From the NCBI GenBank assembly GCA_035536455.1, contig DATLOC010000010.1:65544-129543 (forward strand): 64,000 nt of DNA. Direction: 5' to 3'. Below, piece by piece: positions 4,206-21,165 of the stretch (position 1 is the stretch's first letter; the number at the start of each line of letters is the position of its first letter). Source of the stretch: Thermoanaerobaculia bacterium. GTDB lineage: Bacteria; Acidobacteriota; Thermoanaerobaculia; Multivoradales; UBA5704. Under the pieces are notes generated by a model. It was not told the DNA's origin. It did not search any database and saw only the letters and a list, made by a program, of their open reading frames with translations. The position numbers and the translations under genes were made by a program.

Positions 4206-7205
4206 ATGCCGGAGCCCCAGCCGCCGCTCGCCGGCGCCACTCTCGCCCACTATCGCCTCGCGAACCGGCTCGGCGCCGGCGGCATGGGCGAGGTCTATGC
4301 CGCCGAGGACACCAAGCTCGGGCGCCGCATCGCACTGAAGATCCTGCAGCCCGACTTCGCCGGCGACCCGCTGCGGCTCGAGCGGTTCCGCCGCGAGGCC
4401 CGGGCCGTGGCCGCCCTCAACCACCCCAACATCATTACGATCCATTCGGTCGAGGAGGACCGCGGGATCCACTTTCTCACCATGGAGTTGGTGGAAGGGG
4501 AGACGCTGCGGCAGCGGCTGCGCCGGGGCGGTCTGTCGCTCGCCGAGCTCTTGGAGCTGGCGGTGCCGCTCGCCGACGCGGTCGGGGCGGCGCACGAGCG
4601 CGGCATCACCCATCGCGATCTCAAGCCGGAGAACGTGATGGTGACCCGGGACGGCCGGGTCAAGGTGCTCGACTTCGGCCTCGCCCAGCTGCGCGAGCGC
4701 GCGGTCGCGGTCGACAGCCAGGCCGTGACCTACCTCACCGAGGCGGGAACGGTGATGGGGACCGCCGCCTACCTCTCACCCGAGCAGGCGATGGGGCGGG
4801 AGGTGGACGCCCGCTCCGACATCTTTTCGCTCGGCATCGTGCTCTTCGAGATGGCGTCCGGCAGGCACCCGTTCGCCGGGGCTTCCGCGGCGGAGATCAT
4901 CTCGGCGATCCTGCGGGACAAGCCGGCGCCGGTGACCGAGCGCAACGCCGCGCTCCCCGACCACCTCGGCCGGATCGTCGGCCGCTGCCTCGAGAAGAAT
5001 CCCGAGCACCGCTATCAGAGCGCCAAGGATCTTCGCAACGATCTGCGGGATCTGGGACGCGAGCTGGACGCGACGGAGCGCCTCGGCAACCGAGCTGCGG
5101 CGGCCGCGCCGGTGCGACGCCCCCGCTGGCTGCTGCCCGTCCTGCCGGCGCTTTTGGCCCTTGTGCTAGGCACGGGTTGGTGGCTGTTGAGCCATCGTCC
5201 GGAGAGCGCCCGCACGCCGCCCGCCGGGCCGGCGGACGCGCCGGACCGCGCCGCCATCGCGGTGCTCCACTTCCAGAACCTCACCGGGGACCCGAAGCTC
5301 GACTGGCTCCGCACGGGTCTCACCGAGATGCTGGTCACCGACCTCTCGCAATCCCCCGGCCTGGAGGTCCTGAGCACCGGGCGCCTCTATCAGATCCTCA
5401 AGAAGCACGACGCCCTCGATCGGGCGCCGCTGTCCTTCGAGGCCATGCGGGCGGTGGCCGAGGAGGCCGCCGTGCAGGCGATGGTGAGGGGCAGCTTCGC
5501 CCGGGTCGGCGAGCGCTATCGCCTTGCGGTCACGGTCGAGGAGCCGACGGACGGCAGGATCGTCGCCTCCGAGCGCGTCGAAGGACGCGGCCCTGAGACC
5601 CTTTTCACCCTGGTGGACCAGCTCTCGGCGGCGATCCGACGCACCTTCGAGATCCGCGCCCGGCCCGAGCTGCCGGAGACGGTGGCGGCGGTGACCACCT
5701 CCTCGGTCGAGGCTTGGCGCAACTACTCGGAGGCGAACCGGCTGGCCTTCGAGTCGAAACCGAGGGAGGCGATCGGCCTGCTCGAGCAGGCAGTCGCGAT
5801 CGACCCGACCTTCGCTCTCGCCTACGCCAGCCTGGGGCGCCTGTACGAGAACCTCGGTAACACTCCTACCGCCCGGCACCACACGCGGCGCGCCATCGCA
5901 CATGCCGAGCGGCTCCCGCTCGATCAGCGCAGCGAGATCGAGGGCTTCTACTACGCCGGCCGCTGGGCGACCAAGGACCGCGCCATCGCCGCCTTCCGGC
6001 AGGCCCTGAGGCTCTACCCCAAGCGCGAGTCGCTGCGCAACAACCTGGCCAATCTCTACGCCGAGCGGGAGCTGTACCAGCGCGCCCTCGACGAGTATCG
6101 GCAGCTCATCGAGCAGCGCACGAGCTACCCCGGCACCTACACCGCCGCGGCCAACGCCTATGCCGCGCTCGACCGGTTCGATGAAGGGTACCGGCTGCTG
6201 TCGGGGTTCGCCGGCCGCGCCCCCGACAACTGGTTCGTCCAGCTCGGGCTGGGCTGGCACCTGACCGAGTGGGGCAAGCTCGACCGGGCGGCGGCGGCAT
6301 TCGATCGGGCCGCGGAGCTGCGACCGGGCGAGCTGTTCGTCGCCTACGGCCGCTGGCGGCTGGCCGTCCTGCGCGAGGACTGGCCGGCGGCGGCCCGCCA
6401 CGCGTCGGTGATGGCAGCCGCCGACGACCCGTTCGGCCGCTGGCGGGGAGCGGCGTCGGAGGCGCGCAATCTCTTGTACCAGGGTCGATCCGACGCGGCA
6501 CTCGCGCGGCTGGACGGCGTCGTCGCAGCCTACGGGAAACCGGACGCCTTGAGCGCGCTCGGGCGCTGCTGGAAGGCGGAGCTGCTGCTGCAGAGGGGCG
6601 AGCCCGAGCAGGCGCTGGCGGAGGCGGAGCTGGCTCGGCGGGAGGGCCGCGACGAATGGCCGGAGCTGCGGGGGATCTTCTTCGCCGCCCAGGCCCAGCA
6701 GGCCCTCAGCCGGCCGGTCGAGGCGCGCAGCCTGCAGCAGCTGCTGGCGGAGCGGAACGCCGCCAACCCGAACCCTGTCGAGGAGCGCCAGCTCCACCTC
6801 CTCGCCGGCCTCCTCGCGCTGGCGCGCGGCGAGGCGGCGACCGCCGTTGAGGCCCTCAACCGGGCCGCTGCCCTCCTGCCGCCCAAAGGCGTCGAGGTGC
6901 ACTGGCACGTCTACCCCGACCACGTCCCGATCTGGACCGCGCTGGGCGAGGCCGAGCGCGCCGCCGGGCGGCCCGAGCGGGCGCTCGCGTGGTTCCAGCG
7001 GGCGGCCGCCAGCGGGTCGGAGCACCTCGAGCAGCCCGTGCCTTACGTGCGCAGCTTCTACTTCCTCGGCCGCATCCGCGAGCAACGGGGCGAGACCGAG
7101 GAGGCTCGGCGCAGCTTCGCGCGCTTCCGCGCCTTCTGGGCTGCCGGCGACCTCGACCGCGACCGGATGGCAGCGCTGCCGGCGGCTGTGCGCCCCTCTC
7201 CCTAG
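4206..7205 (+). CDS. Ser/Thr protein kinase with one TM segment and a C-terminal TPR/tetratricopeptide domain (receptor-like STK)
   Basis: Hanks kinase motifs ([29 protein letters not shown]). Hydrophobic segment [21 protein letters not shown], then about 650 aa of TPR-like helical repeats. The start is taken at the ATG at 4206, inside the long artefactual ORF 2019..7205. Confidence 0.85.
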
Positions 7206-7633: not shown

Positions 7634-9580
7634 ATGTCCCCACCGGAGCGGACGATGAGCTCCGTAGGCCGCTCGCTCGTCGTCTTTTTCGCCTTCGCCA
7701 ACGACCGCGACGACCGCGCGCGCTACCTGCGCAACCTGCCCGAGGAGCTGCGGCGGGTGCGCGACGCCATGGCGCCAGCGGTGGAGGCCGAGCTCTGCGA
7801 GGTGGTCGAGCGGGCCAACGCCACCATCGACGAGGTGCTGGACGTCTTCCAGGACCCGATCTACCGCGACCGCGTCGCCCTCTTCCACTTCGGCGGTCAC
7901 GCCGGCGGCGCCGAGTTGCTGCTCGAGTCGCCGGCCGGCGCGGCGACCGTGGCCCACGCGGGAGGGCTGGCGCGCTTCCTCGGCGAGCAGCGCGGTCTCG
8001 TGCTGGTGTTCTTGAACGGCTGCTCATCGCGCGGGCAGGTGCAGGGCCTCCTCGACGCCGGGGTGCCGGCGGTCACCTCGCAGGCCATCGACGATGCAGT
8101 GGCGACCGAGTTCGCCGCCCGCTTCTACCAGGCCCTCGCTGGCGGCGCCCCGCTCCGCGCCGCCTATGCCGAGGCGCAGGGCGCGGTGCAGACCCGGCGC
8201 GGCGGCTTGGCGCGCGAAACCTATCGCTCCTTCGTGCCCGAGGCGATGGCGGAAGAGCGCTGGCCGTGGGACCTCCACGTCGCCCCGGGCGCCGAGGAGC
8301 GCGTCGCGCGCTGGAGCCTGCCGCTCGCCGCCCGCGATCCTCTCTTCGGGCTGCCGCCGCCGCCGGCGCTGGACCTGCCGTCCTCGCCGTTCAAGCACCT
8401 TGCCTGGTTCACCCGCGAAGATGCCGAGGTGTTCTTCGGCCGCGGGCAGGAGATCCGCGACCTCTACGAGGCGGTTACCCTGCCCGAGGCCGCCCCCATC
8501 GTGCTCCTCTTCGGCGCCACCGGGGTGGGCAAGTCGTCGCTGCTGGCGGCGGGCCTCGCGCCGCGGCTCGAAGCGACGCACGAGGTGGTCTACACGCGCC
8601 GCGACGGCGCCGGCGGTCTCGCCGCCACGCTGGCGCGGGCGCTCGGGGCCGCGGGCGCCGGCGCTCCGGCCGACCTCGGCGCGGCGTGGCGGGCGCGGGA
8701 GACGGCGGCCGGGAAACCCCTGGTGATGATCCTCGACCAGGCCGAGGAGGCCTGGACCCGCCCGCTGGCCGACGGGCGTGAAGCCGAGGAGCTGGCGGTG
8801 GCGCTGCGCTCGATCTTCGCGGTGCGGGAGGCCCGGCCGCGCGGGCGCCTGCTGCTCGGCTTCCGCAAGGAGTGGCTGGCTGAGGTGCTGCGGCTCGTTG
8901 ACGGCGAGGCGCTGCCCCGCCTGCGCGTGGAAGTCACCCACCTGGGCTGCGATGCCATCGCGGAGGCCGTCGCCGGTCCGGCAAGCAGCGAACGCCTGCG
9001 GCGGCACTACGGCCTGGAGGTCGAGCCGGAGCTGCCGGGGATCGTCGCCGATGACTTGCTGGAAGATCCGGGCGCTGCCGTCGCCCCGGCGCTGCAGATC
9101 CTGCTGACCAAGATGTGGGCCCTGGCGGCAAAGGAGAGCCCCGGCGCGCCGCGCTTCACCGTCGAGCTCTACCAGCGGCTCAAGCGCGGCGGCATCCTGC
9201 TCGACGATTTCATCGGCGAGCAGCTCGACGGTCTGCGGCAATGGCGACGGGAGCTGGTGGACTCCGGCCTGGCCCTCGACCTGCTCGGCCACCACACCAC
9301 GGCCGTGGGCACGGCCGAGACGCGCCAGGCCGCCGAAGTGGCGGAGCGCTACGGCGGCCGTGCCGACGTGAAGGACCTGCTCGCGCAGTGCAACGACCGC
9401 TATCTCCTCTCCGCCACCGAAGGCGCCAGTCGCCTTGCCACGACACCTTGGCGCCCCTGGTGCGCCGACGCTTCGAGGCCTCGGACCTGCCCGGCCAGCG
9501 GGCCTCGCGCATCCTCGGGCAGCGCGTCGTCGAATGGGCGGGGGGCAAGGAGGGGGCGCCGCTCGACGAGCTGGACCTGA
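7634..9580 (+). CDS. CHAT-like (caspase-fold His/Cys) peptidase domain fused to a STAND-class P-loop NTPase. The reading frame degenerates after about 9438, consistent with a frameshift.
   Basis: N-terminal domain has a His...Cys dyad in CHAT/caspase order (ALFHFGGHAG ... LVFLNGCSS). Then FFGRGQEIRDL, Walker A LLFGATGVGKSS and Walker B VMILDQAEE. After SATEGASRLA the translation turns Arg/Ser-rich, and sensible sequence continues in another frame. Confidence 0.7.
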   Translation: MSPPERTMSSVGRSLVVFFAFANDRDDRARYLRNLPEELRRVRDAMAPAVEAELCEVVERANATIDEVLDVFQDPIYRDRVALFHFGGHAGGAELLLESPAGAATVAHAGGLARFLGEQRGLVLVFLNGCSSRGQVQGLLDAGVPAVTSQAIDDAVATEFAARFYQALAGGAPLRAAYAEAQGAVQTRRGGLARETYRSFVPEAMAEERWPWDLHVAPGAEERVARWSLPLAARDPLFGLPPPPALDLPSSPFKHLAWFTREDAEVFFGRGQEIRDLYEAVTLPEAAPIVLLFGATGVGKSSLLAAGLAPRLEATHEVVYTRRDGAGGLAATLARALGAAGAGAPADLGAAWRARETAAGKPLVMILDQAEEAWTRPLADGREAEELAVALRSIFAVREARPRGRLLLGFRKEWLAEVLRLVDGEALPRLRVEVTHLGCDAIAEAVAGPASSERLRRHYGLEVEPELPGIVADDLLEDPGAAVAPALQILLTKMWALAAKESPGAPRFTVELYQRLKRGGILLDDFIGEQLDGLRQWRRELVDSGLALDLLGHHTTAVGTAETRQAAEVAERYGGRADVKDLLAQCNDRYLLSATEGASRLATTPWRPWCADASRPRTCPASGPRASSGSASSNGRGARRGRRSTSWT

Positions 9581-10905
9581 CGGTCGTCGAGCAGGGGGCG
9601 GATGGCATGCGCGCCTGGACCGCCGACGAGAAGCGGCTGGTGGAAAGGAGTCGCGACCAGCGGACGCGGCGCCGGCGGCTGCGGCGCAACCTGCGGTTGG
9701 CGGCGATGTTGGCCGTCCTCGTGATCGCGACGTCCGCCGCCGCAGCCTGGTGGCAGCGGGCCAGGGCCGAGAAGGAAGCGAGGACCGCTGGGCGGGTCAC
9801 CGATTTCCTGACCGGCATGTTCCAGGAGCTCGACCCGTACCGCGTGGCGCTGGACGAGAACTCCTTGCCGCACATTCTCGAGCGCAGCCGGAAGAGGATC
9901 GAGAGGGACCTCGCGGACGAACCGGAGGCGCAGGACGAGCTAAGGGCGACGATTGGTGTGGTCTACCGCAACCTGGGCTTGGTCCGTCCGGCGAGGGAGC
10001 TCCTGCAGCAGGTCGTCGCCTTCCGCCGCCGCACTCTCGGCGAGGAGCATCCGGACACGCTTGTCGCGAAGAACGACCTGGCCAATGTGTACTCCGCGGC
10101 GGCGCGCCACAAGGAAGCCGAGGAGCTGTACCGCCAGGTCCTTGCGAGCCGCCGTCGCGTGCTGGGTGAGGAGCACACGGACACGCTCAAGGCGATGAGC
10201 AATCTGGCTAATGGGTATCGCCATCAAGCCCGCCTGAAAGAAGCGGAAGACATGAACCTGCAGGTCATCGCGCGCTTCCGCCGCGTGTCGGGCGACCGGC
10301 ATCCCGACACGCTCAAAGCGATGACCAACCTAGCCAATCTGTATGCGCTCCAGGGCCGCCTGCGAAGAGCGGAAGAGCTCCATCGCCGGGTCCTCCAGAT
10401 CCGTCGGGGTCTCCTGCGCCCGGAGCACCCGGACACGCTCGCGTCGATGACCAGCCTGGCCAATGTGGTGTCGACGCGCGGGCGCCCGCGGGAGGCCGAG
10501 GAGCTGCAACGCCGAGCCTTCGCGATCTCTCGTCGGGTCCTGGGGGAGGCGCACCCGGACACGCTCATGTACCGGGAAAACCTGGCCAATGCCTACTACG
10601 AGCAGGGTCGCCTGGACGAGGCCGAGAAGCTGTACCGCGAGGTCCTAGCGCTGCGCCGCCGCGTGCAGGGCGAGGAGCATCCGGACACGGTCGCCTCGAT
10701 GAACAACCTGGCGATCTTGGCGCGGGATCGAGACCGCCCCAAGGAAGCGGCCGACCTGCTCCGCCGTGGCCTCGAGATCCATCGCCGCGTGCTGGGGCCG
10801 GAGCACCCGTCCACTCTCACCTCCATGAGCAACCTGGTCGCTGTGCACGCGATGCAGGGTCGCCTCGCAGAAGCCGAGGCCCTGCAGCGCCGGACGGGCG
10901 CCTGA
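9115..10905 (+). CDS. Continuation of the preceding STAND gene in a second frame: helical region, one TM helix, then about 10 TPR_10/12 (kinesin-light-chain-type) repeats. Ends at a second apparent frameshift.
   Basis: Sensible translation starts near 9440 (HDTLAPLVRRRFEASDLPGQ...). TM helix LRLAAMLAVLVIATSAAAAWW. Repeats follow the pattern GEEHPDTLxxMxNLAxxYxxQGRLxEAEELYRRVL. A stop at 10903 interrupts a repeat that continues in frame -1. Confidence 0.65.
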   Translation: MGPGGKGEPRRAALHRRALPAAQARRHPARRFHRRAARRSAAMATGAGGLRPGPRPARPPHHGRGHGRDAPGRRSGGALRRPCRREGPARAVQRPLSPLRHRRRQSPCHDTLAPLVRRRFEASDLPGQRASRILGQRVVEWAGGKEGAPLDELDLTVVEQGADGMRAWTADEKRLVERSRDQRTRRRRLRRNLRLAAMLAVLVIATSAAAAWWQRARAEKEARTAGRVTDFLTGMFQELDPYRVALDENSLPHILERSRKRIERDLADEPEAQDELRATIGVVYRNLGLVRPARELLQQVVAFRRRTLGEEHPDTLVAKNDLANVYSAAARHKEAEELYRQVLASRRRVLGEEHTDTLKAMSNLANGYRHQARLKEAEDMNLQVIARFRRVSGDRHPDTLKAMTNLANLYALQGRLRRAEELHRRVLQIRRGLLRPEHPDTLASMTSLANVVSTRGRPREAEELQRRAFAISRRVLGEAHPDTLMYRENLANAYYEQGRLDEAEKLYREVLALRRRVQGEEHPDTVASMNNLAILARDRDRPKEAADLLRRGLEIHRRVLGPEHPSTLTSMSNLVAVHAMQGRLAEAEALQRRTGA

Positions 10906-10988
10906 AAGCAGCGGAGGGCCTGTACCGTCGGACCCTGGCGCGTTTTCGCCGCGGGCTGGGCGAAGAGCACCCGGAGACGATCTGGTCA

Positions 10989-11258
10989 ATGAACAACCTG
11001 GCCGCCGTCGTGCGAGACCGAGGGCGCCTCGCGGAGGCCGAAGCCCTGTACCTCCAGGTCCTCGCGCGCCGGCGCCGCACGCTGGGCGAACAACACATCG
11101 ACACGCTCACCACGATGACCGAACTGGCAGGCGTCTATCGGGCGCAAGGTCGCCTACAAGAAGCGGAGGGACTGGAGAGCCAGGCTCTCACGCTCTATCA
11201 GCAGGCGCACCCTCCACCGCCTTCACCGCGAAGTGCTCCAGCAGATAGCGATGGATGA
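10989..11258 (+). CDS. Terminal TPR repeat fragment of the same disrupted STAND-TPR gene
   Basis: Read-through in this frame from about 10897 gives GRLKAAEGLYRRTLARFRRGLGEEHPETIWSMNNLAAVVRDRGRLAEAEALYLQVLARRRRTLGEQHIDTL..., which are canonical repeats. The 3' end overlaps the convergent gene. Confidence 0.55.
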   Translation: MNNLAAVVRDRGRLAEAEALYLQVLARRRRTLGEQHIDTLTTMTELAGVYRAQGRLQEAEGLESQALTLYQQAHPPPPSPRSAPADSDG

Positions 11259-12762
11259 ACATGTAGCCGCCGCCCACCTTCTGCAGGAAACCGAGATCCT
11301 CGGCGGCGTAGTCGAGGAAGTCGGAGAGCCGCAGCGGCAGGAGGCGCTTGGCCGACAGGATCAGGCGGAGGACCCAGTGGTAGATCACGTCGGCGCCGCC
11401 GTACCAGAGACCGGCGTAGAGGCCCGCGGCGAGCGCCGCGAGGATTCCGAAAAGAGTGCCGTAGAGCGGCCCGAGAGCCGGACCCACTCCCGCCTGAGAG
11501 CTCACCCAGCGCCCGAGTGCGTACCCGCCGGCGGCGCCGGCGAAGCCGAAGGCCAGGCCCACGAGGCCGCCGCCCACGAAGGCGTTGCGCAGCGACAGCC
11601 GGATGCCCTGGTTGGGCACGGTCTTGAGCGCCACGACCCGGCTCTGGAGCCCGTTGAAGATGGTCCCGGCGAGCGCGCCCACGAGGGCCGCCGCCAGCCA
11701 CACGAACCAGGGGAGGCCGAGCGAGGTCGAGAACGTGCCCGTGGCGCCGCCGAGAAGCGCGAGGCCGCCCAGCAAGGCGCTGCACACCAGCCCGCAACCC
11801 AGACCGGCGGTCCCGCCGCGGCGGAGCGCCTTCCCGACGCCGGCTCGGGCCCAGAGATTGACCGCGGCCCCGAGGACGGCGCCCACCACGGCGAGCAGCA
11901 GCATGAGGAACAACCACAGCATCAGGTACGGCCCAGCTTTCAGGAGCAGGGCGGTTCCCAACCCGGCGATCAGCCCGATCAGGGCTCCTTTGCCGACGCC
12001 GACCCATGACCACCTCAGGGTCTCCACCGTCTGGATCTCCCGCGTCCCGCTCTGGCGCGCGGCCCTCGTCCCCCAGAGCGGCGCGGCCACCACAGCGAAG
12101 GTCGGGCCGATGAAGAACGCGGCCAGCACCCCCACGAACGGCCCAATCGCCGCGTCGCCGCCTTCGTCGATCAGGCCGAAGACGGTGAAAAGGCCCCCGG
12201 CGACGACCACGGTGACGAGGGAGCAGAACAGCGTCAGGGCCACGAAGTAGAGGGCCGAGAAGGCGAGACGCCGCCATCGCGCCGGGGCCTCGTCGGCCAT
12301 CCTCCAGAAGCGGCCGGCGCGAAGCCGCCACAGCTCGAGCACGGCACCGCTCGGGCTCACAACCAGGCCGGCGAGCAGCCCGAGGACGAGGGTGCCAACC
12401 GCCGCCATCGCGATAACTTCCACCAGCCCCTCCTCGACCACGGTCACCACCGAGGTCCCCGAGCTGGTTAGGAAGTCGATGATCGACCCACTGCCGTCCT
12501 CCATCGTTCCGGCCTGGAACAGGAGGAGGATGGCGCTCGGTCCGATGATGGCGGCCCAGAGCACCCCCAAGAGCACGCCCACCGCCAGCCGCGAGGCCAG
12601 GAGGTAGAGGGCGAGCTGTCCGCGCCCCGAGAGCCAGCTCGGCTGGAGCTGCTCGATCAGGAAAACCGTCTGCCCGTGCTGCTGCATGCCCCTGGCGAGC
12701 CAGGCCAGCCAGGCGGTGGCTTGGCGTTCGCTATACGGCGGCTTGCCCTTCCGCTCAGGCAT
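11188..12762 (-). CDS. C-terminal part of a NACHT NTPase: winged-helix motifs flank an inserted multi-pass (about 8-10 TM) membrane domain
   Basis: N-terminus PYSERQATAWLAWLARGMQQHGQTVFLIEQL matches the NACHT helical/WH region. About 380 aa of hydrophobic helices follow. The C-terminus ...DFLDYAAEDLGFLQKVGGGYMFIHRYLLEHFA matches the NACHT terminal FxHxxxQEYxA-type motif. The start ATG overlaps the upstream ORF's stop (ATGCCTGA). Confidence 0.7.
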   Translation of the reverse strand: MPERKGKPPYSERQATAWLAWLARGMQQHGQTVFLIEQLQPSWLSGRGQLALYLLASRLAVGVLLGVLWAAIIGPSAILLLFQAGTMEDGSGSIIDFLTSSGTSVVTVVEEGLVEVIAMAAVGTLVLGLLAGLVVSPSGAVLELWRLRAGRFWRMADEAPARWRRLAFSALYFVALTLFCSLVTVVVAGGLFTVFGLIDEGGDAAIGPFVGVLAAFFIGPTFAVVAAPLWGTRAARQSGTREIQTVETLRWSWVGVGKGALIGLIAGLGTALLLKAGPYLMLWLFLMLLLAVVGAVLGAAVNLWARAGVGKALRRGGTAGLGCGLVCSALLGGLALLGGATGTFSTSLGLPWFVWLAAALVGALAGTIFNGLQSRVVALKTVPNQGIRLSLRNAFVGGGLVGLAFGFAGAAGGYALGRWVSSQAGVGPALGPLYGTLFGILAALAAGLYAGLWYGGADVIYHWVLRLILSAKRLLPLRLSDFLDYAAEDLGFLQKVGGGYMFIHRYLLEHFAVKAVEGAPADRA

Positions 12763-14893
12763 GCGCGCCCGCTTCCGCCCGGCGGAACATGCGGGCGACG
12801 AAAGCCTCCATCAGTTTCTGGCGCCGGGCGGCGAGGGTCTCCGCGCCGGCGCTCTCGAGGGTCGTCACGGGCAGATCCTGGTAGGCCTGGACCATCAAGC
12901 TCAGCATCAGGGGCGAGCGGGCCTCGATGAGCATCCCGGAATCGCGTTCCAAGAGGCTCTTGAGGGCCGCCAGCGGGGGGCCCGCCCGCTCCAGGAAGGC
13001 GAAGACCTGATCGCGCGTGAACGGCTGGAGGCGGATGGCGCCGTTCAGGGCGAGGCGCACCGGCAGCTCCAGGTACTCTTTGAGGCGGCAGCAGACCGCG
13101 ATGCTCGGCTGCAGGCCGGCCTCGGTAAATGCGTTGACCGCCTCGACACAGGCGCTCCGGGCCTCCGGCGCCACCTCGTCGAGACCGTCGAGCAACGGCA
13201 GCAGCCGGCCCTCGTCGAGCCAGGCACGGCCCACCCTCTTCGGGATCAGGTAGCGGACCGCCAGCCGGTCCACCAGCCAGTCGCCGAAGTCCTGTCCAGG
13301 GCCCTTCCACGAGGCGAGGTCGAAAAGGACCGGCACGGGGCAGGCGGGATCTTTCTCGGCCCGGTCGAGGAGGTCCCGAGCCAGCTCCAGGAGGCTGATC
13401 GTCTTGCCTGACCCGGGCTCGCCGAGAACGAGCAGCGAGCCGCCCAGCTCTTCGAAGACCTCGGCGACGCGCCGCCCGGCGGGCACTGCCGCGGCGCCCG
13501 CGTCCGCGGTGTCCGACACCGCGCCGAAGGGGCTCGCCGTCGCCCCCCCCACGATCTCCATCCCCAGGTCCAAGCGGGCGCTGCGCTGGAGCGAGCGCTC
13601 GAGCACCCCTTCGATCCAGAACTGGCGCACTTTGCGCAGCAGGATCAGCAGACCCTTGCGGGCATCGGGGGCGGCCACGGCCGGCGCCGGAGAAGGCCGC
13701 GCCGGGGCCGCCGGCGGCGGCGCGGAGGCCGGCGCCGCGCGGAACAGGGCCCCCGCGACGTCGACGCGGAACAGCGTGCCGTCGCGGGCGCGCAGGTGCA
13801 GCACCGGCGTGCCCCACTCGACGTTGTCTCCGAGGGCCATCTTGATCGCTTGGCGGGCCTCCGAAACCGCCGTGTCCACGGCGTCGCCGTCGGCCAGGGA
13901 GTCGTAGAACGTCCGGGCGAACTCGATGGCCGCGCGGTCGCTGATCTCGTACTGCATCGAGACCACCGCGGGGAGCCCTCGGCTCGCCAGGATCGCCCCG
14001 GCGCTCGAGCAGAGGCTCGTCTCGCTGCTGCGGGCACCTTCGCAAGCGTTGAGGACCGCGAGCTTGAGCGACGCATGGTCGGCCAGCAGCGTCCCCAAAT
14101 CGCGGGCCGGAAGCCGGTGAGGCTCCCCGCCGCCGCCCGCCTCCGCGTCGAGCAGCACCAGCCCCTCGCCCGTCGCTTCGTCGAAGCCGCCGTGGCCGAT
14201 GAAATGAAAGATGTGCCAGGGCCCTTGCTCCAGGGCCTCGCTCAGGTCCCGCCAGGTATGGCCGCCGACCCACTGGAGCCGTACCACGCCCTTGTCCGTC
14301 AGGTGCTCGATGGCGAGCGCCATCTGCTCCTGCTCGCGCGCCACGTTCAGACCGTGCCGCGCGCCCACCATGCCGAGGATCCGGATCGGCGGCTCCAGGG
14401 TCAGCGGCTCGATCGGCAGCCCCAACTCGAGGTGGCGCACGATGGGAGTCTCGCGCGAGAGGCTCAGGTAGTCCTGCTTGAAGTCCGGATCGAAGAGGTA
14501 CTCCCAGGGCAGGGCGGCGAGGTCGGGGGCCTCGATGCGCAGCCGGAGCCGCAGGCCCTTGCCCTGGCCGCGGGCCTGCACGAGGCTGGTGTGGTAGCAG
14601 GCGTAGAGGGCCTTCTCGCGGGTGAGAGCGGCGAAGAGGTCGCGGCCCAGCTCCTGGGCGCTCCGCATCCGGTCGAGCGGCGCCTCTTCCGGCCGCGTCG
14701 GGGCGAAGCTGCGGCCCGCTCTGCCGGCGCCACGGGCGGCCTCCACCAGGCGCAGGCGGTCGCGGAAGATCGGGTCGGAAAGCGTCAGCTCGAGGGTGGC
14801 GTTCGTCTCCCCCGCCGGCGAGTCCAGGACGGAGACGGCGTAGACGCCCTCGCCGCGAGGGCTGATCTTCAGCTCGAGCTCCAGGTACTCCAT
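12755..14893 (-). CDS. CHAT-domain peptidase fused to a NACHT NTPase. N-terminal part of a split NLR-like gene.
   Basis: CHAT motifs (LPWEYLFD..., HIFHFIGHGG, LAVLNACEGA). NACHT Walker A LVLGEPGSGKTIS, Walker B LLPLLDGLDEV, sensor IAVCCRL, and ARSPLMLSLMVQAY. Start taken at the ATG at 14893, 8 bp after the caspase gene's stop. The ORF-track extension to 15670 is read-through. Confidence 0.8.
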   Translation of the reverse strand: MEYLELELKISPRGEGVYAVSVLDSPAGETNATLELTLSDPIFRDRLRLVEAARGAGRAGRSFAPTRPEEAPLDRMRSAQELGRDLFAALTREKALYACYHTSLVQARGQGKGLRLRLRIEAPDLAALPWEYLFDPDFKQDYLSLSRETPIVRHLELGLPIEPLTLEPPIRILGMVGARHGLNVAREQEQMALAIEHLTDKGVVRLQWVGGHTWRDLSEALEQGPWHIFHFIGHGGFDEATGEGLVLLDAEAGGGGEPHRLPARDLGTLLADHASLKLAVLNACEGARSSETSLCSSAGAILASRGLPAVVSMQYEISDRAAIEFARTFYDSLADGDAVDTAVSEARQAIKMALGDNVEWGTPVLHLRARDGTLFRVDVAGALFRAAPASAPPPAAPARPSPAPAVAAPDARKGLLILLRKVRQFWIEGVLERSLQRSARLDLGMEIVGGATASPFGAVSDTADAGAAAVPAGRRVAEVFEELGGSLLVLGEPGSGKTISLLELARDLLDRAEKDPACPVPVLFDLASWKGPGQDFGDWLVDRLAVRYLIPKRVGRAWLDEGRLLPLLDGLDEVAPEARSACVEAVNAFTEAGLQPSIAVCCRLKEYLELPVRLALNGAIRLQPFTRDQVFAFLERAGPPLAALKSLLERDSGMLIEARSPLMLSLMVQAYQDLPVTTLESAGAETLAARRQKLMEAFVARMFRRAEAGAHA

Positions 14894-14901
14894 GCCGGGC
14901 G

Positions 14902-16956
14902 TTACCGCCGCACCCCGATCGCCACCGTGGCCGTCGCCCAGTCGCGCTCCGGCACGTCCTCGACCCTCGGCGGGGCGAAGCTGCGCGACCCCTCCCCCGA
15001 CTGGTAGAGGGCGGCCACCCGCTCGAGCGGGTTCTCGCCCCAGACGGCACGGGTCGCCTCCTGTTCCAGGAACCCGAAGTCGACGGGAGCGCGGGTGACC
15101 AGGAGCTTCAGGTGGACGAGCCCGAGGTCCGCGATCTCGCCGGGCTCGGCCGCCCAGGGGAAACCGGCGGGCAGGTGCAGGGGCAGGCCCCCGGCGAGCT
15201 TGAAGGAGTCGCGGCCGACCCGCGTCACCGCGCCTGGGGCCAGCTCCATCCCGCCCGCCACGTCGACGTCGCCCTGGAACGGGATGAGGAGCTGAATCCT
15301 GCCGTCGCTGCCGAACTCGACCAGACTCACGCGGACCGGGGCGTCGAAGCCGTTCTCGATCTCGAACTCCGCCGCCTCCCCCTCGCGGAAGACCGGGACG
15401 CCGTCGCCGGGCGCGGGCTCGGCGGCGATCAGCTCGTCGCCACGCTGGCGGTACGCGCGCAGCCCGACCCGCCCGCGCAGCCGGCTCGCCGGGTCGGGGT
15501 TGTCGAGCGCGAGGAGCGACCGGTAGCGGGCGACGCCGCGGAGGTCGCGGAGCAGGGCGTCGAGGTCGGCGGGCTGCGGCGGCTGCTCGGACCGCAGGTG
15601 CGCCGCGAGGCGCCCGTCGCGGCCGACCGCGGCCCAGGTCCAGGCGGCGAGCGGCCCCACGCCGGGGCACGGATCGCCGGGTCCGACGCCCGGCCGCGGC
15701 GGCAGGCAGCGGACGAGGACGTCGGCGTCGGCGGCGTCCTCGATCCGTTGCAGCAGGCGGTCGCCGTCGAGGAGGCCGGCGAGGCGGCCGGCCTCTGCGG
15801 CCCGCTCCGCCGGCACCGCGAGCGCGAGCCGCAGCCCCGGCGCGGGGAGCCGCTGCTCGGCGAGGAAGGCGCGCATCCCGGGCTCGGGCTCGCCGCCGCG
15901 TCCGGCCTCGAGCCGCCCGCGGGCGGTCGCGGCCGCGACGTCGCCGATGCGCACCGCCGCCACCTCCTCACCCGCGCTCCGGTCGCGGCTGCCGAAGGCG
16001 CGGATCGTCCACAGCGAGCCCGGCGCCACGCCGTGGGCGGCGCCGCCGGCGAGCTCCACCTCGTCTCCCGTGCGCGACAGGACCCGCAGGTAGGAGCCCG
16101 GCCGCACCTCCTCCGTACCGAACAGCAGCTCGTCCAGCTTGCCCTCGGCCTGCGGGTGCTGGCGGCCGTAACGCGCGGTGACCGCCGGCGCGACCTGCTC
16201 GATGAGATCGCGCCAGGTGACCGCCCGGTCGAGTCGCGCCAGCGCCTCGCCGAGAAAGAAGGTCAGGGCGCCATGCCGCACGACCTGGGTGCCGTCGAAG
16301 ACCCGGTGCTCGCTCGCCAGCTCGTCGGCGCGGCAGGCGGCCACCATGACCGCGCGCCGCCGCCCCGGGAGCCATCCGGCCCGGCCGGCCTCCTCAGGCG
16401 CGCTCAAGCTCCGAGTCGCCGCGAGGACGGGCGGCGGCTCGCCGCCGGCGAACATCTCCGCCGGCGCGCGCAGGTCGGCCTCCACCTCGCGCGTCGCCTC
16501 GCCGAACGCGTCGCGGGTGACCGCGCCCGAGTGGCAGCAGTCGAAGAGCAGTGTGACGTACGGGGTCTTCTCGTTGACCCGCCGCACCCAGGCGTCGATC
16601 TCCTCGTCGATCAGGTCGCGGTTGGGCTTGCTGCCGCGGCCGCTGTCGTGGGTGACCATCGACTCGATCATCCGCCCCGGGGCGCGCGGGTCGGCCATCC
16701 GCGAGCCGTGCCCCGCATAGAAGAGGACGACGACGTCCTCCTCCCCTGCCGCGGCCGCCAGCTCCTCGAGCGCCGCCAGGACGCCCGCGCGCGTCGCCTC
16801 GGAGTCGCGCAGCGCGCGCGCCTCGGCCTCCGGGAAGCCGAAGCGGTCGACGAGCAGCGAGCGCATCAGCTCCATGTCGTTGACGCACCCCTCGAGGTCC
16901 GCGCCGGCGATCTCGGGGTAGCGGTTGATCCCGATGAGCAGGGCTCGTCTCTCCAT
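14902..16956 (-). CDS. Peptidase C14 (caspase/metacaspase-family) protein with a C-terminal domain of about 400 aa and unknown function
   Basis: RALLIGINRYP...VNDMELM...VVLFYAGHGS (His) and LLFDCCHSGA (Cys). Strong SD (GGGAGGGCGCGAGG) before the ATG at 16956. First gene of a two- or three-cistron minus-strand operon. Confidence 0.85.
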   Translation of the reverse strand: MERRALLIGINRYPEIAGADLEGCVNDMELMRSLLVDRFGFPEAEARALRDSEATRAGVLAALEELAAAAGEEDVVVLFYAGHGSRMADPRAPGRMIESMVTHDSGRGSKPNRDLIDEEIDAWVRRVNEKTPYVTLLFDCCHSGAVTRDAFGEATREVEADLRAPAEMFAGGEPPPVLAATRSLSAPEEAGRAGWLPGRRRAVMVAACRADELASEHRVFDGTQVVRHGALTFFLGEALARLDRAVTWRDLIEQVAPAVTARYGRQHPQAEGKLDELLFGTEEVRPGSYLRVLSRTGDEVELAGGAAHGVAPGSLWTIRAFGSRDRSAGEEVAAVRIGDVAAATARGRLEAGRGGEPEPGMRAFLAEQRLPAPGLRLALAVPAERAAEAGRLAGLLDGDRLLQRIEDAADADVLVRCLPPRPGVGPGDPCPGVGPLAAWTWAAVGRDGRLAAHLRSEQPPQPADLDALLRDLRGVARYRSLLALDNPDPASRLRGRVGLRAYRQRGDELIAAEPAPGDGVPVFREGEAAEFEIENGFDAPVRVSLVEFGSDGRIQLLIPFQGDVDVAGGMELAPGAVTRVGRDSFKLAGGLPLHLPAGFPWAAEPGEIADLGLVHLKLLVTRAPVDFGFLEQEATRAVWGENPLERVAALYQSGEGSRSFAPPRVEDVPERDWATATVAIGVRR

Positions 16957-17174
16957 CCTCGCGCCCTCCCGCGGAGGCCCCGGCCGCTCGTTTGTCAGAG
17001 TGGTGGCAGCATAGCATTCGCCTTCCGCTATCTTTCCGACAGACGGCGCTTGAATCGCAAAAGAGCGATATCGCTCCGCGGCGACGAGAGTTGGCGCGGA
17101 GTTGACCTTCTCCACGAAGCGTGTCAGAAATGGCGCGCAAATCGGTCCACAATCGACTCAACGAAGGGGGAAGA

Positions 17175-20123
17175 ATGAAGAGCATGCTGCTTCGTCGGCA
17201 CGTGGTGGTTTTCGCCGCCTTTCTCATCCCGCTGCTCGCCGCCTCGTGCACGATCCAGCGCGCGATGGTCAAGCCCGAGGGCGCGAGCGGGGGGAAGAAG
17301 GCTCCGGCCGCGCTGGCCAACAAGATGGCGCAGGCGCAGAAGTTCGCGCCCTGGGACGAAACAAGGCTGCAGGACGCCGGCCCCGCCAGCTTCGCCGAGC
17401 AGGACTGGCTGGAGAAGAACACGGACGGCCAGGGGAACGGGCCCACTCCGCTCAGCGCTCTCAGCGGGGCGCTCGCCGGCTGGAAGGGGTTCAAGGCGCG
17501 GCCGGCCGAGGGGGGCGGGGCGTGGCAGCCGTTCGGCCCCACCAACGGCATCAACGACCTGGCCAACCCGTACCGCGACCGCTCCGTGTACAACGCGGGG
17601 ACCGAGAACTTCAGCGGCCGCACGGTCCACGCCGTGATCTCGCCGGACTGCACGGCGGGCGATTGCACCCTGTGGATCGCCAATGCCAACGGCGGCGTCT
17701 GGCGGACCGCCGACGCGCTCGCTCCAGAGCCGGCGTGGGAGTACGTCTCGTATGCCTTCGAGCAGAACAACGTCTCGTCCCTCGCGCTCGACCCCAACGA
17801 CGCCAGCCACAGGACGCTGTGGGCCGGCACCGGCGAGCCCAACGCCTGCGGCAGCGGCTGTGAGGCCGGGGTCGGCGTCTACGTGTCGACCAACGGCGGC
17901 AACTCCTGGAGCGGCCCGCTCGGCGTGGAGGCCTTCTTCGGCCGCGCCGCCGGCACGGTCGAGGTCAAGCCGGGCGACCCCAACACCATCTTCGTCGGCG
18001 CCGGCCGCGGCGTCGTGGGCGTCAGCAACACCTGCTGCGGCGGCGCCGACGCGCTAATTCCCGGCGCGCCGCACTTCGGGGTCTGGCGGTCGCAGGACCG
18101 CGGCCAGACCTGGGAGCTGGTCAACCAGGGCGACGCCGCGCTCTGCACCGCGTTCACCCCCGATCAGGTGTCCTTGAACGGCACGCCCTGCTCGCCGCGC
18201 GGCGCCCGCCGCGTGAAATTCGACCCGGTCGATCCGAACACGGTCTACGCCTCGTTCTTCGCCCGCGGCATCTGGCGCTCGAAGTCGAACGGCGATCCGG
18301 GAACCTGGGAGCAGATCATGCCGCGGCTCGGGCCCGCCACGGTCACCACCGAGCGCGCCGAGTTCGACGTCGTCGAGCTGCCGAGCGGCGAGACGCGGAT
18401 GTACGTCGGCGTCGGCGGCGGCGGCCTCTTCGCCCGCTTCCGCCGCAACGACGCGGTGCGCAACCCGGCCGCCGCCACGGTCGCGGCCTCCTGGGTGACC
18501 ACCACTAGCTCTGTCGTCAACTCGCCGGGCTACTCCAGCTTCGGCTTCTGCGACGGGCAGTGCTCCTACGACAGCTACGTGTACGTCCCGCCGGCGTCGT
18601 CGGGGGCCACGGTCGACACCGTCTACCTCTCGGGCGCCAACCAGTACAACGAGAACAACTACGCCCCCAGCACCAGCGGGCGGTCGAACGGCCGCGCCGT
18701 CCTGGTCTCCACCGACGCCGGGGCGACGTTCACCGACCTGACCGAGGACAGCCGCAGCAACACTCAGCCGGGCGCGCTGCACCCGGACCACCACGCGGTG
18801 GTGGTCAACCCGACGAACTGGATGCAGTTCTTCGACTTCGGGGACGGCGGCGTCAACCGCTCGGACGGCGTCTTCGTCGACGAGTCGGCCGACTGCGCGG
18901 CGCCGCCGAAGTCCTACACCGGCGGGAACCGCACGTTCTGCGAGCTGGTGCTGTCGCGGGTGCCGCAGGAGCTCAAGGCGATCAACAAGGGCCTGCGGAC
19001 CCTCCACTTCTACCAGGTCGAGTACGACCGGACGAACCCGGACCGGCTCGCCGGCGGCACCCAGGACAACGGCTCGTGGGAGACGCTGGGCGACAAGGAC
19101 ACCTGGGTCAACGTCAACGTCGCCGACGGCGGCCACAACGCCTTCGACGCGCCGGGGCCGGGCCACGATCCGGAGTTCGCGCTGACCTCCTTCCAGGTCG
19201 GCCAGCTCTCGGTGCGCTACAACTCGCTCGACCAGTCCGACGTCAACTGGATCTCGGACACCCTGTTCATCCTCTTCAACGAGGCCTCGCCGTTCATCAC
19301 CAGCGCGATCACCGACCCGGTGACGCCGGGCACCCTCTTCACCGGCCGCGAGCACGTGTTCCGCTCGAAGAACTGGGGCCGCGCCGTCGGGCTGACCAAG
19401 GCCAAGCACCGGCAGCACTGCAACATCTGGACCGGCGACGGCGACATCGACGAGGACGGCACCTACGAGCCGCTCACCGACCTCTGCGACGACTGGAGGG
19501 CGCTGGGCAATCAGACCGCGGCCGGCAGGCTGACCAACGCGGTCTTCGGCGACCGCGCCGGCGGGCACATCTCCACGGTGGAGCGCGCCTACAGCGACAC
19601 CAGCACGCTGTGGGCGACGACGAGCACCGGCCGCGTCTTCATCTCCAAGAACGTCGACAACGCGGACCCCACGACCGTCACCTTCACCCGGCTCGACAGC
19701 CTGGCCGCCAACGACCCGCCGCGCTACCCGACGGCGATCTTCGTCGACCGCACCAACCCGAACCACGCCTGGATCAGCTACAGCGGCTTCACCGCCAAGA
19801 CGCCGCTCACGCCGGGCCACATCTTCGAAGTGACCTACAACCCCGGGGCGGGAACGGCGACGTTCACGATGCTCGACTCGCTGGACCCGGAAAAGAACTA
19901 CCCGGACATCCCGGCCAACGCGATCGTCGTCACCAACGCGGGCTCCATCTACGTCGGCAACAGCTTCGGAGTCGCGGTGAAGAAGGCCGGCACCGACAAG
20001 TGGAAGCCCTCGCCGGCCGGTCTGCCCAACGTCAACGTGGCCGACCTGGTCTACATGCCGGAGAGGGACTCCCTCTTGGCCGGTACGCACGGCCAGGGCA
20101 TCTGGAAGCTGAAGGTGAAGTAA
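17175..20123 (+). CDS. Secreted lipoprotein with BNR/Asp-box (SxDxGxTW) beta-propeller repeats. Sialidase or GH74/Ycf48-like.
   Basis: Lipoprotein signal MKSMLLRRHVVVFAAFLIPLLAASC. A GAAGGGGGAAGA SD precedes the ATG at 17175. Repeated S-x-D/N-x-G-x-(T/S)-W motifs (VSTNGGNSWSG, SKSNGDPGTWEQ, RSQDRGQTWEL, VSTDAGATFTD). Confidence 0.8.
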   Translation: MKSMLLRRHVVVFAAFLIPLLAASCTIQRAMVKPEGASGGKKAPAALANKMAQAQKFAPWDETRLQDAGPASFAEQDWLEKNTDGQGNGPTPLSALSGALAGWKGFKARPAEGGGAWQPFGPTNGINDLANPYRDRSVYNAGTENFSGRTVHAVISPDCTAGDCTLWIANANGGVWRTADALAPEPAWEYVSYAFEQNNVSSLALDPNDASHRTLWAGTGEPNACGSGCEAGVGVYVSTNGGNSWSGPLGVEAFFGRAAGTVEVKPGDPNTIFVGAGRGVVGVSNTCCGGADALIPGAPHFGVWRSQDRGQTWELVNQGDAALCTAFTPDQVSLNGTPCSPRGARRVKFDPVDPNTVYASFFARGIWRSKSNGDPGTWEQIMPRLGPATVTTERAEFDVVELPSGETRMYVGVGGGGLFARFRRNDAVRNPAAATVAASWVTTTSSVVNSPGYSSFGFCDGQCSYDSYVYVPPASSGATVDTVYLSGANQYNENNYAPSTSGRSNGRAVLVSTDAGATFTDLTEDSRSNTQPGALHPDHHAVVVNPTNWMQFFDFGDGGVNRSDGVFVDESADCAAPPKSYTGGNRTFCELVLSRVPQELKAINKGLRTLHFYQVEYDRTNPDRLAGGTQDNGSWETLGDKDTWVNVNVADGGHNAFDAPGPGHDPEFALTSFQVGQLSVRYNSLDQSDVNWISDTLFILFNEASPFITSAITDPVTPGTLFTGREHVFRSKNWGRAVGLTKAKHRQHCNIWTGDGDIDEDGTYEPLTDLCDDWRALGNQTAAGRLTNAVFGDRAGGHISTVERAYSDTSTLWATTSTGRVFISKNVDNADPTTVTFTRLDSLAANDPPRYPTAIFVDRTNPNHAWISYSGFTAKTPLTPGHIFEVTYNPGAGTATFTMLDSLDPEKNYPDIPANAIVVTNAGSIYVGNSFGVAVKKAGTDKWKPSPAGLPNVNVADLVYMPERDSLLAGTHGQGIWKLKVK

Positions 20124-20286: not shown

Positions 20287-21165
20287 ATGCGCATTCACTC
20301 GCTGTACTTCGCGGCCGCGGCCCTGCTGCTCGCGTCCGCGCCCGCCTGCGCCGACGGTTTCAACGTCAGCACGCGGGGGGACGACATCCGCGACTGCTCG
20401 GACCTCGAAGTCACTGCCCACGGCCGGCGGGTGGCGCGGGCCGAGGAATCCTTCACCCTGCCGGCGCCCCGCGGCGCGCGGCTGGTCGTCGAGGGTTCGC
20501 GCAACGGCGGCGTCTACGTCACCGGCGGCGCCGGGCGGGACTACGAGGTGCAGGTCTGCAAGGCCGCCGTGGCGGGCACGCAGGAGGCCGCGGAGCGGCA
20601 GCTCGCGCGCATCCGTGTCGAGTCCGGCGATGGCCGGCTCGCCGGCAGCGGGCCGGGCGGCGGCGACTGGCTGGTCTACTTCCTGATCGCGGCGCCGCGC
20701 GACGCGGCCATGGACGTGGCGGTGCGCAACGGCCCGCTCGCCGTGCGCGACACCGCCGGCGACTTCCGGCTGCGCGCCGAGAACGGACCGATTGCGCTGC
20801 GCGGCACCGAAGGCGCCTACGACGTCGCGGTGCAGAACGGTCCGGTCTCGATCTCCGGCGGCGGCGACGACGTGAAGGTGCGCGCCAACAACGGCCCCAT
20901 CTCGGTGCGCCTCGCCGACGGCGACTGGGACGGCGAGGGCCTCGACGCCCGCGCGGTCAACGGCCCGCTCAGCCTCTCGGTCGGCGAGTCCTTCCGCTCC
21001 GGCGTCGTCGTCGAGGCCTCCGGCAACTCCCCTTGGAGCTGCTCCGGCTGCGCCGCCGCCCGCCGCACCTGGCAAGACGAAGGCCGCCGCTTCGAGCTCG
21101 GCGAAGGCCCCGTCCGCGTGCGCCTCTCGACGGTCAACGGACCGGTATCGATCAAGGTGCGCTGA
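20287..21165 (+). CDS. Secreted DUF4097-like (putative adhesin / beta-helical) protein
   Basis: Signal peptide MRIHSLYFAAAALLLASAPACA. Repeated NGP(I/L/V)xxR motifs typical of DUF4097. Confidence 0.65.
   Translation: MRIHSLYFAAAALLLASAPACADGFNVSTRGDDIRDCSDLEVTAHGRRVARAEESFTLPAPRGARLVVEGSRNGGVYVTGGAGRDYEVQVCKAAVAGTQEAAERQLARIRVESGDGRLAGSGPGGGDWLVYFLIAAPRDAAMDVAVRNGPLAVRDTAGDFRLRAENGPIALRGTEGAYDVAVQNGPVSISGGGDDVKVRANNGPISVRLADGDWDGEGLDARAVNGPLSLSVGESFRSGVVVEASGNSPWSCSGCAAARRTWQDEGRRFELGEGPVRVRLSTVNGPVSIKVR

Follow-up and report, generated by a model that had tools for sequence, protein, structure and literature searches.

A NACHT module divided between a soluble CHAT gene and a membrane-inserted winged-helix gene, beside a caspase gene, in a Thermoanaerobaculia bacterium

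The subject of this analysis is a set of three genes in a stretch of 64,000 nt (hereafter the window; G+C content approximately 71%) of contig DATLOC010000010.1, assembly GCA_035536455.1, from a soil bacterium of the Thermoanaerobaculia (Acidobacteriota). The genes lie tightly packed on the minus strand. Open reading frame (ORF) 1 encodes a caspase-like protease; ORF2, which starts 8 nt after the ORF1 stop codon, encodes a CHAT protease joined to the nucleotide-binding domain (NBD) and helical domain 1 (HD1) of a NACHT module; and ORF3 encodes the winged-helix domain (WHD) of that module, interrupted by a multi-pass membrane segment. The original prediction for this DNA had described a caspase gene, a CHAT-NACHT gene and an ORF bearing transmembrane (TM) segments, and its coordinates and motifs were all found to be correct. 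Its assignments to C14, CHAT and NACHT, the last with Walker A and B motifs, were also borne out: the Pfam C14 and CHAT matches exceeded their cutoffs, and NACHT was recognised by profile-profile comparison. The genes and the junction between the second and the third are as follows.

14902..16956, minus strand: ORF1, 684 aa, C14 metacaspase-like protease (Pfam, PADLOC and fold matches)
12755..14893, minus strand: ORF2, 712 aa, soluble; CHAT protease plus NBD and HD1, the N-terminal two-thirds of the NACHT module
11188..12762, minus strand: ORF3, 524 aa; NACHT WHD with a multi-pass membrane insertion of ~410 aa
12755..12762, minus strand: gene junction ATGCCTGA, in which the ORF3 ATG overlaps the ORF2 TGA (8 nt)

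The features recognised in ORF2 are listed next.

13841..14617, minus strand: CHAT domain, ORF2 residues 93-351 (Pfam CHAT, dyad)
14186..14203, minus strand: FIGHGG, with H234 of the CHAT catalytic dyad
14036..14053, minus strand: LNACEG, with C284 of the CHAT catalytic dyad
12758..13486, minus strand: NACHT NBD-HD1
13400..13423, minus strand: Walker A, GEPGSGKT (K497)
13172..13195, minus strand: Walker B, LLDGLDEV (D569, D572, E573), with the D[GAS]hDE signature
13073..13096, minus strand: sensor-1, CCR
12896..12916, minus strand: SPLMLSL motif

ORF2 is a CHAT peptidase, as judged from a Pfam match well above cutoff (PF12770; E 1.6e-22, 80.7 bits, cutoff 24) together with the His/Cys dyad. 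It also matched the PADLOC profile SAVED_CHAT (E 2e-19), with profile positions 101-295 corresponding to ORF2 residues 143-420, the CHAT part only; no SAVED sensor is fused to CHAT in ORF2, in which the domain C-terminal to CHAT is NACHT. The sole PDB match to the ORF2 sequence was 8tl0, a 'CHAT domain-containing protein' (E 7.9e-5), which is presumably the SAVED-CHAT protein of Steens et al. The best NCBIfam match was to the cell-division/heterocyst protein HetF (NF045509; E 1e-19), and was partial, covering the CHAT core only; because it reached 70.4 bits against a cutoff of 1200, ORF2 is not regarded as a HetF orthologue. The NCBIfam model antiphage_EruA gave 17.3 bits against a cutoff of 1000.

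With regard to NACHT, ORF2 contains a P-loop of the form GxxGxGK[ST] and the D[GAS]hDE type of Walker B that marks the NACHT clade (Kibby et al., bioRxiv 10.1101/2022.07.19.500537). The Pfam NACHT model (PF05729) scored 19.8-21.8 bits for ORF2, under its gathering cutoff of 26.7, which is passed by several relatives (P0056, 41.1 bits; P0080, 34.9; P0029, 27.5; P0291, 49.0). NACHT membership of the ORF2/ORF3 module rests on profile-profile and fold evidence: the NBD-HD1-WHD is similar, in both respects, to bona fide NACHT proteins. The C-terminus of ORF2 falls exactly where the WHD would be expected to start.

The WHD is found in ORF3, in two pieces. ORF3 is 100% identical to the NCBI entry 'hypothetical protein VNJ70_03220, Thermoanaerobaculia bacterium', from a metagenome-assembled genome (MAG). 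It gave no match in Pfam, NCBIfam or PADLOC, none of which holds a model for the membrane module of its family. Its N-terminal sequence is YSERQATAWLAWLARGMQQHGQTVFLIEQLQPSWL, and its parts are as follows.

12631..12735, minus strand: N-terminal half of the WHD, YSERQATAWLAWLARGMQQHGQTVFLIEQLQPSWL, ORF3 residues 10-44, from profile alignment
11398..12624, minus strand: membrane insertion, ORF3 residues ~47-455, with ~10 hydrophobic helices forming 5 hairpins
12004..12039, minus strand: conserved loop motif EIQTVETLRWSW (family pattern DIQTVETLxWSW), ORF3 residues 242-253, on the positively charged side
11584..11625, minus strand: conserved loop motif KTVPNQGIRLSLRN (family pattern KTxPNQGIRLSxRN), ORF3 residues 380-393, on the positively charged side
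11227..11391, minus strand: C-terminal half of the WHD, DVIYHWVLRLILSAKR...FLDYAAEDLGFLQKVGGGYMFIH504RYLLEHFA, residues 458-512, holding the conserved WHD histidine

For comparison, 91 canonical NACHTs without TM segments, relatives of the cyanobacterial NACHT from one locus, were collected and 30 of them aligned. The family alignment, with the window sequence first and the TM block excised, was then compared locally with the profile of these 30 by means of hhalign. The alignment of the whole excised module (99.9%, E 1.3e-34) spanned 309 columns and took in the WHD as far as the histidine motif. A profile of the WHD only aligned at 93.5% (E 2.3e-7) over 81 columns, with both halves falling on one contiguous WHD: TAWLAWLARGMQQHGQTVFLIEQL in the first half was aligned to KELLEELAYQFSCESKQLFSFGEL of the canonical NACHTs, and FLDYAAEDLGFLQKVGGG..YMFIHRYLLEHFA in the second to DLTKELCEQDGILQRW..YLFLHRTFQEYLTA. 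Since both ends of ORF3 align to a single canonical WHD, the membrane block of ~410 residues is an insertion in that domain, as the original prediction had proposed; the point of insertion lies between the 'QTVFLIEQL' strand and the helices preceding the His motif.

The segment FIHRYLLEHFA, also claimed to be NACHT-related, aligned to the WHD His motif of the canonical NACHTs and to that of NLRP3, with H504 opposite H522 (FYSFIH522MTFQEFFAA). The hhalign match to this single sequence was weak (25%, P 7.6e-4) and local to the His motif, as was a match to the single NACHT of locus L024 (5%, P 0.0078). Sequence searches of the PDB with a TM-excised chimera, an 11-sequence chimera profile and a 23-sequence WHD-only profile gave no NLR or WHD match, and returned only P-loop proteins (RFC, ORC) and chance matches to TRAP1. 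H504 is invariant in the family, and W18, L19, Q31, F34, E37 and others in the N-terminal half are invariant or nearly so. A WHD with the conserved His motif (FxHxxxQE[FY]xxA) thus follows HD1, in interrupted form, a conclusion reached only through the profile-profile comparison with the canonical bacterial NACHTs.

The hydropathy of ORF3 places all of the positively charged loops on the side of both termini and leaves very short loops on the opposite side, a pattern that fits five helical hairpins with the N- and C-termini both cytoplasmic. An AlphaFold2 model of ORF2 and ORF3 joined (mean predicted local distance difference test score, pLDDT, 82.9; predicted template modelling score, pTM, 0.77) showed long helices in the membrane block, and both conserved loops of the positively charged side were confidently modelled, with a short strand in each. 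The notion that the TM region belongs to an independent transporter was considered and rejected: the block matches no Pfam, NCBIfam or PADLOC family, and in every homologue it lies between the two WHD halves within a single ORF.

It was apparent from a survey of related loci that the boundary between ORF2 and ORF3 is conserved. One genome per species was scanned, and ORFs were read at 68 informative loci. A split at the identical HD1|WHD position was observed at 26 of the 26 loci with a window-like CHAT N-terminus, whereas all 42 loci with other N-termini had a single fused ORF. The split loci span at least eight phyla and derive from several independent assemblies, their sources being Acidobacteriota, Planctomycetota, Chloroflexota, Bacteroidota, Rhodothermales, Gemmatimonadota, Calditrichia and a Burkholderiaceae MAG. 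A start codon (ATG, GTG or TTG) is present at all 26 splits, often with GGAGG 5-8 nt upstream. The junction has the form [A/G/T]TGNNT[G/A]A in most (8-nt overlap, frame relation +1), a 4-nt ATGA overlap in a smaller group (-1), and a 2-nt gap once. Every relative of ORF3 examined, whether close (82-94% identity) or distant (41-47%), is a separate protein beginning at the same residue, and the gene upstream of each is a CHAT-NACHT gene ending with an 8-nt or a 4-nt overlap.

Because the frame relation differs among lineages, sequencing error and programmed frameshifting are excluded and translational coupling is indicated. On these data ORF2 and ORF3 are genuine separate genes coupled in translation, and the boundary between them is a conserved gene split. 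The original prediction had treated them as one conceptually joined protein; they do make up one NACHT module, but the conserved division into two coupled genes had been missed. Fused counterparts also exist, and were found in metagenomes. P0195 (1073 aa) is 52.5% identical to the whole of ORF2 and then runs on into an ORF3 homologue, and further CHAT-NACHT-WH[TM] fusions are P0291, P0256, P0254 and P0285; a rule that the window-like CHAT is always split, true of the 26 genome loci, is thus contradicted by these metagenomic proteins. The occurrence of the same two parts in both separate and fused form provides Rosetta-stone evidence that ORF2 and ORF3 act as one unit. Since the genes are coupled and have relatives that are fused polypeptides, their products almost certainly form a single NACHT unit on the inner face of the membrane. 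These architectural statements about the locus are made with high confidence. In locus L032 (8001..10027), two tandem matches to the C-terminal WH/TM part follow one CHAT-NACHT gene; these may represent a duplicated membrane subunit or a rearrangement.

The family to which ORF3 belongs is large. A search with ORF3 returned 6,394 representative proteins (50%-identity clusters) at E<=1e-3 and 3,121 at E<=1e-10. Among the best 150 matches, 139 were newly returned; 97 of these are without Walker A, mostly 330-600 aa in length and apparently stand-alone, and 42 have it. The WH[TM] module is preceded by CHAT, kinase, TIR, DUF4062, adenylate/guanylate cyclase or EAD7, or by no effector; P0029 and P0032 (704 aa) consist of NACHT and TM only, with no recognisable N-terminal effector. 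In P0249 (1110 aa), NACHT at 130-276 is followed by a WD40 propeller (~571-950), with a C-terminus of the WH/TM type only at 961-1104; the terminal motif is the same, but the sensor elements around it are differently arranged.

The original prediction took a membrane-embedded insertion in an NLR-type NTPase to be an apparently undescribed architecture. That view cannot be upheld, as the class has been catalogued, comprises thousands of clusters and carries many N-terminal effectors. Kibby et al. (bioRxiv 10.1101/2022.07.19.500537), citing Kaur et al. 2020 and 2021, list a class of bacterial NACHT (bNACHT) proteins with 'TM region' sensors, predicted to sense intramembrane or periplasmic signals. 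The general architecture, a TM-type bacterial NACHT with a peptidase effector, is therefore on record as a likely immune or cell-death device. The treatment in that preprint amounts to one sentence, with no insertion anatomy, model or experiment, and a search of the literature yielded no published model, structure or experiment for the class. Nor was a published description found of the gene split (the preprint does not use the word 'split'), that is, of the division into CHAT-NBD-HD1 and membrane-WHD subunits, or of the lineage-specific C14 partner, to which we now turn.

The features of that partner, ORF1, are as follows.

About 16132..16950, minus strand: caspase domain
16702..16719, minus strand: YAGHGS, with catalytic H83
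16525..16542, minus strand: DCCHSG, with catalytic C141
14905..16104, minus strand: C-terminal ~400 aa, beta-rich, with no family match

ORF1 belongs to the C14 peptidases by all three measures applied: a Pfam Peptidase_C14 match above cutoff (E 1.7e-20, 74.1 bits, cutoff 21.4), a His/Cys dyad (H83 and C141, invariant across 63 homologues) and a caspase-hemoglobinase fold. It matched the PADLOC 'caspase' profile at E 2.6e-25. When its AlphaFold2 model (pLDDT 85.5) was compared with the PDB using Foldseek, the Arabidopsis type-II metacaspases 9 and 4, bacterial GSU0716 and MALT1 were the top matches (E down to 2.6e-13); only the caspase domain was recovered, and the C-terminal region gave no match. 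The loops at residues 143-152 and 182-199 are of low confidence in this model. The NCBIfam model caspase_w_EACC1 scored 60.9 bits, under its cutoff of 140, and no small TM gene of the EACC1 type lies beside ORF1. In Rubrivirga, Gemmatimonadota and others, caspases of the ORF1 type are fused to DUF7379 (PF24096) in proteins of ~1150-1185 aa (P0137-P0144, P0151, P0153). Elsewhere, a small ORF of 73-91 aa occupies a conserved position after such a caspase (L010, 10110..10385; L011, 10090..10311).

It was of interest to determine whether the caspase is a conserved neighbour of the split pair. A C14 gene was present at 6 of the 21 distinct split loci. The ORF1 type, with both caspase domain and C-terminal region, was adjacent only in Thermoanaerobaculia (the window, L001, L002/L015, L004 and L013), and unrelated C14 genes lie beside two further split loci, directly upstream in L026 and downstream in L039. 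Within Thermoanaerobaculia the trio persists in relatives diverged to 41% (ORF3) and 63% (ORF1) identity, and the ORF1-ORF2 adjacency with its 8-nt gap is kept in L001, L002 and L013. A universal partnership was rejected on these counts and on the existence of ORF1-type caspases without the NACHT pair; the caspase is a recurrent but lineage-specific accessory.

In the window, the operon is flanked on one side by RecQ and a kinase-TPR gene and on the other by a 292-aa ORF, UvrB and a methyltransferase (2275..7205 and 20287..23965). The arrangement of these flanks is identical, with a common gene order, in L001 (1983..16790), an 86%-identical relative. Two other genes lie between the operon and its flanks.

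7634..11258, plus strand: CHAT-nSTAND1-TM-TPR gene, convergent with the operon, spread over three reading frames
17121..20123, plus strand: ORF of 1000 aa with a hydrophobic N-terminus and a strong coding signal (G+C content at third codon positions 0.95)

When an intact 1273-aa orthologue (L013:9499-13320, minus strand) was used as reference, the first of these showed two frameshifts, near 9440-9460 and 10895-10915, with ~65 aa of TPR missing; it represents either a pseudogene or a repeat mis-assembly. The 1000-aa ORF, for which Pfam gave no match at E 1e-5, is missing from the syntenic position in L001 and is therefore taken to be an insertion beside the caspase gene. All-against-all clustering of neighbouring ORFs was noisy, as the high G+C content generates spurious alternative-frame ORFs, and only the caspase and CHAT-nSTAND1 clusters were used; genes of the CHAT-nSTAND1-repeat type adjoin approximately 6-8 of the 21 split loci. 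The operon slot is at a fixed chromosomal position that gains and loses other STAND genes, and it resembles a small hotspot of such conflict genes inside a housekeeping neighbourhood. A PIN/PhdYeFM toxin-antitoxin pair and a TIR_2-domain protein are found in L001 (16795..19330), a few kb from the operon.

Switches of the NLR/STAND type lie at the heart of innate immunity, in bacteria as well as in animals and plants. In their closed state the WHD histidine contacts ADP; on activation the WHD rotates off NBD-HD1, the protein oligomerises, and the N-terminal effectors are activated by proximity. In these terms the balance of the evidence tips, though not heavily, towards the locus encoding a membrane-integral, two-subunit switch of this kind with a protease output. 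The effector, a CHAT cysteine protease, comes from ORF2 together with the NBD-HD1 core of the ATPase, and ORF3 contributes the WHD with its histidine and the membrane bundle. At rest, the ORF3 histidine would lock ADP in the ORF2 NBD, as in NLRs, and the CHAT-ATPase subunit would be tethered to the membrane subunit. A change in or at the membrane would pass to the WHD via the two conserved, presumably cytoplasmic loops (DIQTVETLxWSW and KTxPNQGIRLSxRN), permitting nucleotide exchange and oligomerisation, which would gather the CHAT domains and so activate them. As the WHD is continuous with the membrane bundle through these loops, a conformational change in the membrane domain would be the natural trigger, and the combination of a constant TM block with variable N-terminal effectors argues that the block is the sensor.

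In the Thermoanaerobaculia lineage, the CHAT protease would probably then cleave and activate the co-operonic caspase, leading to degradation of cellular proteins and, in an infected or damaged cell, to arrested growth or death. That ORF2 may process ORF1 is proposed by analogy, and the inflammasome-like logic and abortive infection put forward in the original prediction are plausible on the same basis, the analogy being the SAVED-CHAT to PCaspase cascade described below. The combined reading of sensor, cascade and defence is held more tentatively than the switch itself, at slightly short of even. A further step, that this is a true two-component NLR in which a polytopic membrane protein provides the WHD lock (H504) in trans to a soluble CHAT-NBD-HD1 protein, is considered unlikely. 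If it is correct, nucleotide-dependent autoinhibition would operate between two polypeptides, and membrane perturbation (phage entry, holin, envelope damage) would free the soluble subunit or change its arrangement, leading to oligomerisation and the CHAT-to-caspase cascade. Such a protein would be the first NLR-type receptor known to read membrane integrity directly, via a sensor embedded in its own NACHT module.

Several observations tell against the switch-and-cascade proposal. Every element of it, from trigger and oligomerisation to protease substrates and phenotype, is an inference. Of the 21 distinct split loci, 15 lack the caspase, and ORF1-type caspases, a sizeable family, also occur without the NACHT pair, again near CHAT-STAND genes, which makes the cascade step lineage-specific at best. 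The operon is flanked by housekeeping genes (RecQ, UvrB), with no obvious mobile defence island, and the PADLOC scan gave no NACHT-system match, neither PADLOC nor NCBIfam providing a match at the level of a system. Furthermore, the TM bundle might serve as effector instead of, or as well as, sensor, with NACHT oligomerisation clustering TM hairpins to permeabilise or depolarise the membrane and the CHAT and caspase proteins in accessory or regulatory roles. Oligomerisation-triggered TM effectors are indeed common in bacterial defence, CBASS being an example; the tiny non-cytoplasmic loops leave little surface for binding a ligand, and the effector-less P0029 and P0032 would be readily accommodated. 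In STAND proteins, on the other hand, it is normally the variable terminal domain that is the effector and the conserved C-terminal region that is the sensor, and here the N-terminus varies while the TM block is constant. The Gly/Ala-rich helices, whose conserved loops lie on the side with positive charge, also resemble a transducer, and Kibby et al. (bioRxiv 10.1101/2022.07.19.500537) class the TM regions as sensors. An effector role for the bundle is accordingly judged improbable.

A function other than defence against phage is rated as rather unlikely: the locus would encode a membrane-stress or developmental proteolytic module, with a HetF-like CHAT protease under NTPase control, serving envelope homeostasis, differentiation or kin-related programmed cell death. 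HetF is the top NCBIfam match of ORF2, the position between RecQ/kinase-TPR and UvrB is stable in two genomes, and the family is enriched in filamentous or complex bacteria (cyanobacteria, Chloroflexota, Planctomycetota). The HetF score is, however, far below that of an orthologue, and the CHAT-nSTAND1-repeat neighbours, with turnover of the slot between close relatives, are typical of conflict systems (Kaur et al. 2020, PMC7159879), which the swapping of N-terminal effectors (TIR, kinase, cyclase) likewise fits. As for the gene boundary, it is most improbable that it is an artefact of sequencing error or a pseudogene frameshift, or that a programmed ribosomal frameshift yields one CHAT-NACHT-TM polypeptide. 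The frameshifts, real or artefactual, in the STAND gene at 7634..11258 and the existence of fused single-ORF relatives might suggest as much, but the same split residue recurs, each time with a start codon and often with GGAGG, at every CHAT-type locus surveyed across the phyla named above. No one frameshift mechanism accounts for a frame relation that changes by lineage, and, among the newly returned best matches to ORF3, most of the 97 without Walker A look like stand-alone WH[TM] proteins.

To our knowledge, the well-studied NLR/STAND switches are all soluble, single-chain receptors. In the family examined here, which numbers at least 3,121 clusters at 50% identity, the regulatory WHD houses a polytopic membrane domain. 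In one of its clades the ATPase is shared between a soluble and a membrane subunit, the cut falling at the HD1|WHD hinge, the interface that moves in NLR activation. A natural split at this hinge offers a ready-made system for the study of WHD-lock control of nucleotide exchange and oligomerisation, and could reveal the coupling between a membrane signal and protease output. The neighbouring caspase is a second possible example of a bacterial CHAT-to-caspase cascade, with a different sensor. As the general architecture was previously catalogued, these results represent a refinement of known biology and not a new kind of system.

The locus can be compared with several known systems. It shares with the CHAT/caspase-STAND conflict systems of multicellular bacteria (Kaur et al. 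2020, PMC7159879) the pairing of caspase-superfamily peptidases with STAND NTPases, a membrane-proximal mode of operation, the enrichment in cyanobacteria, Chloroflexota and Planctomycetota, and neighbouring CHAT-nSTAND1-TPR/WD40 genes; it differs from them in having neither the EACC1 component of the EACC1-caspase systems nor a vWA-MoxR or GTPase core. Like the KAP P-loop NTPases (Aravind et al. 2004, Genome Biol 5:R30; cited in PMC8195603), it encodes an NTPase of the STAND/AAA+ neighbourhood with TM segments inserted within a conserved module. In KAP proteins the TM segments reportedly lie in the NTPase domain itself, whereas at this locus it is the WHD that is interrupted, with the NBD left intact; the locus proteins gave no KAP match in Pfam. 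The animal NLR inflammasomes (NLRP3, NLRC4/NAIP, NLRP1) have in common with it the WHD His motif (H522 in NLRP3) and, in the scheme proposed here, an oligomerising NTPase acting on caspase-fold proteases. The present proteins differ in that LRR, PYD and CARD are absent, the protease is fused directly, the WHD holds a polytopic membrane insertion and the module comprises two polypeptides; sequence identity to the animal proteins is only 12-17%.

A close parallel for the proteases is the type III-B CRISPR-CBASS hybrid of Haliangium ochraceum, in which oligomerised SAVED-CHAT cleaves and activates an adjacent PCaspase, resulting in abortive infection (Steens et al., bioRxiv 10.1101/2023.06.23.546230). 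In both cases a CHAT protease, here one that matches PADLOC SAVED_CHAT, is encoded beside a C14 'prokaryotic caspase'. The CHAT protease of the hybrid is activated by oligomerisation of its sensor domain, which is SAVED binding cA3; the corresponding element here is a membrane-embedded NACHT, the locus has no CRISPR or cyclase context, and ORF1 possesses an additional beta-rich C-terminal region of ~400 aa. The locus belongs to the bNACHT class with TM regions (Kibby et al., bioRxiv 10.1101/2022.07.19.500537), with which it shares an NTPase of the NACHT clade of STAND, marked by the D[GAS]hDE Walker B, and a variable N-terminal effector, peptidases included. The present locus departs from that description in two respects: the insertion is mapped to the inside of the WHD, and the module is divided between two genes.

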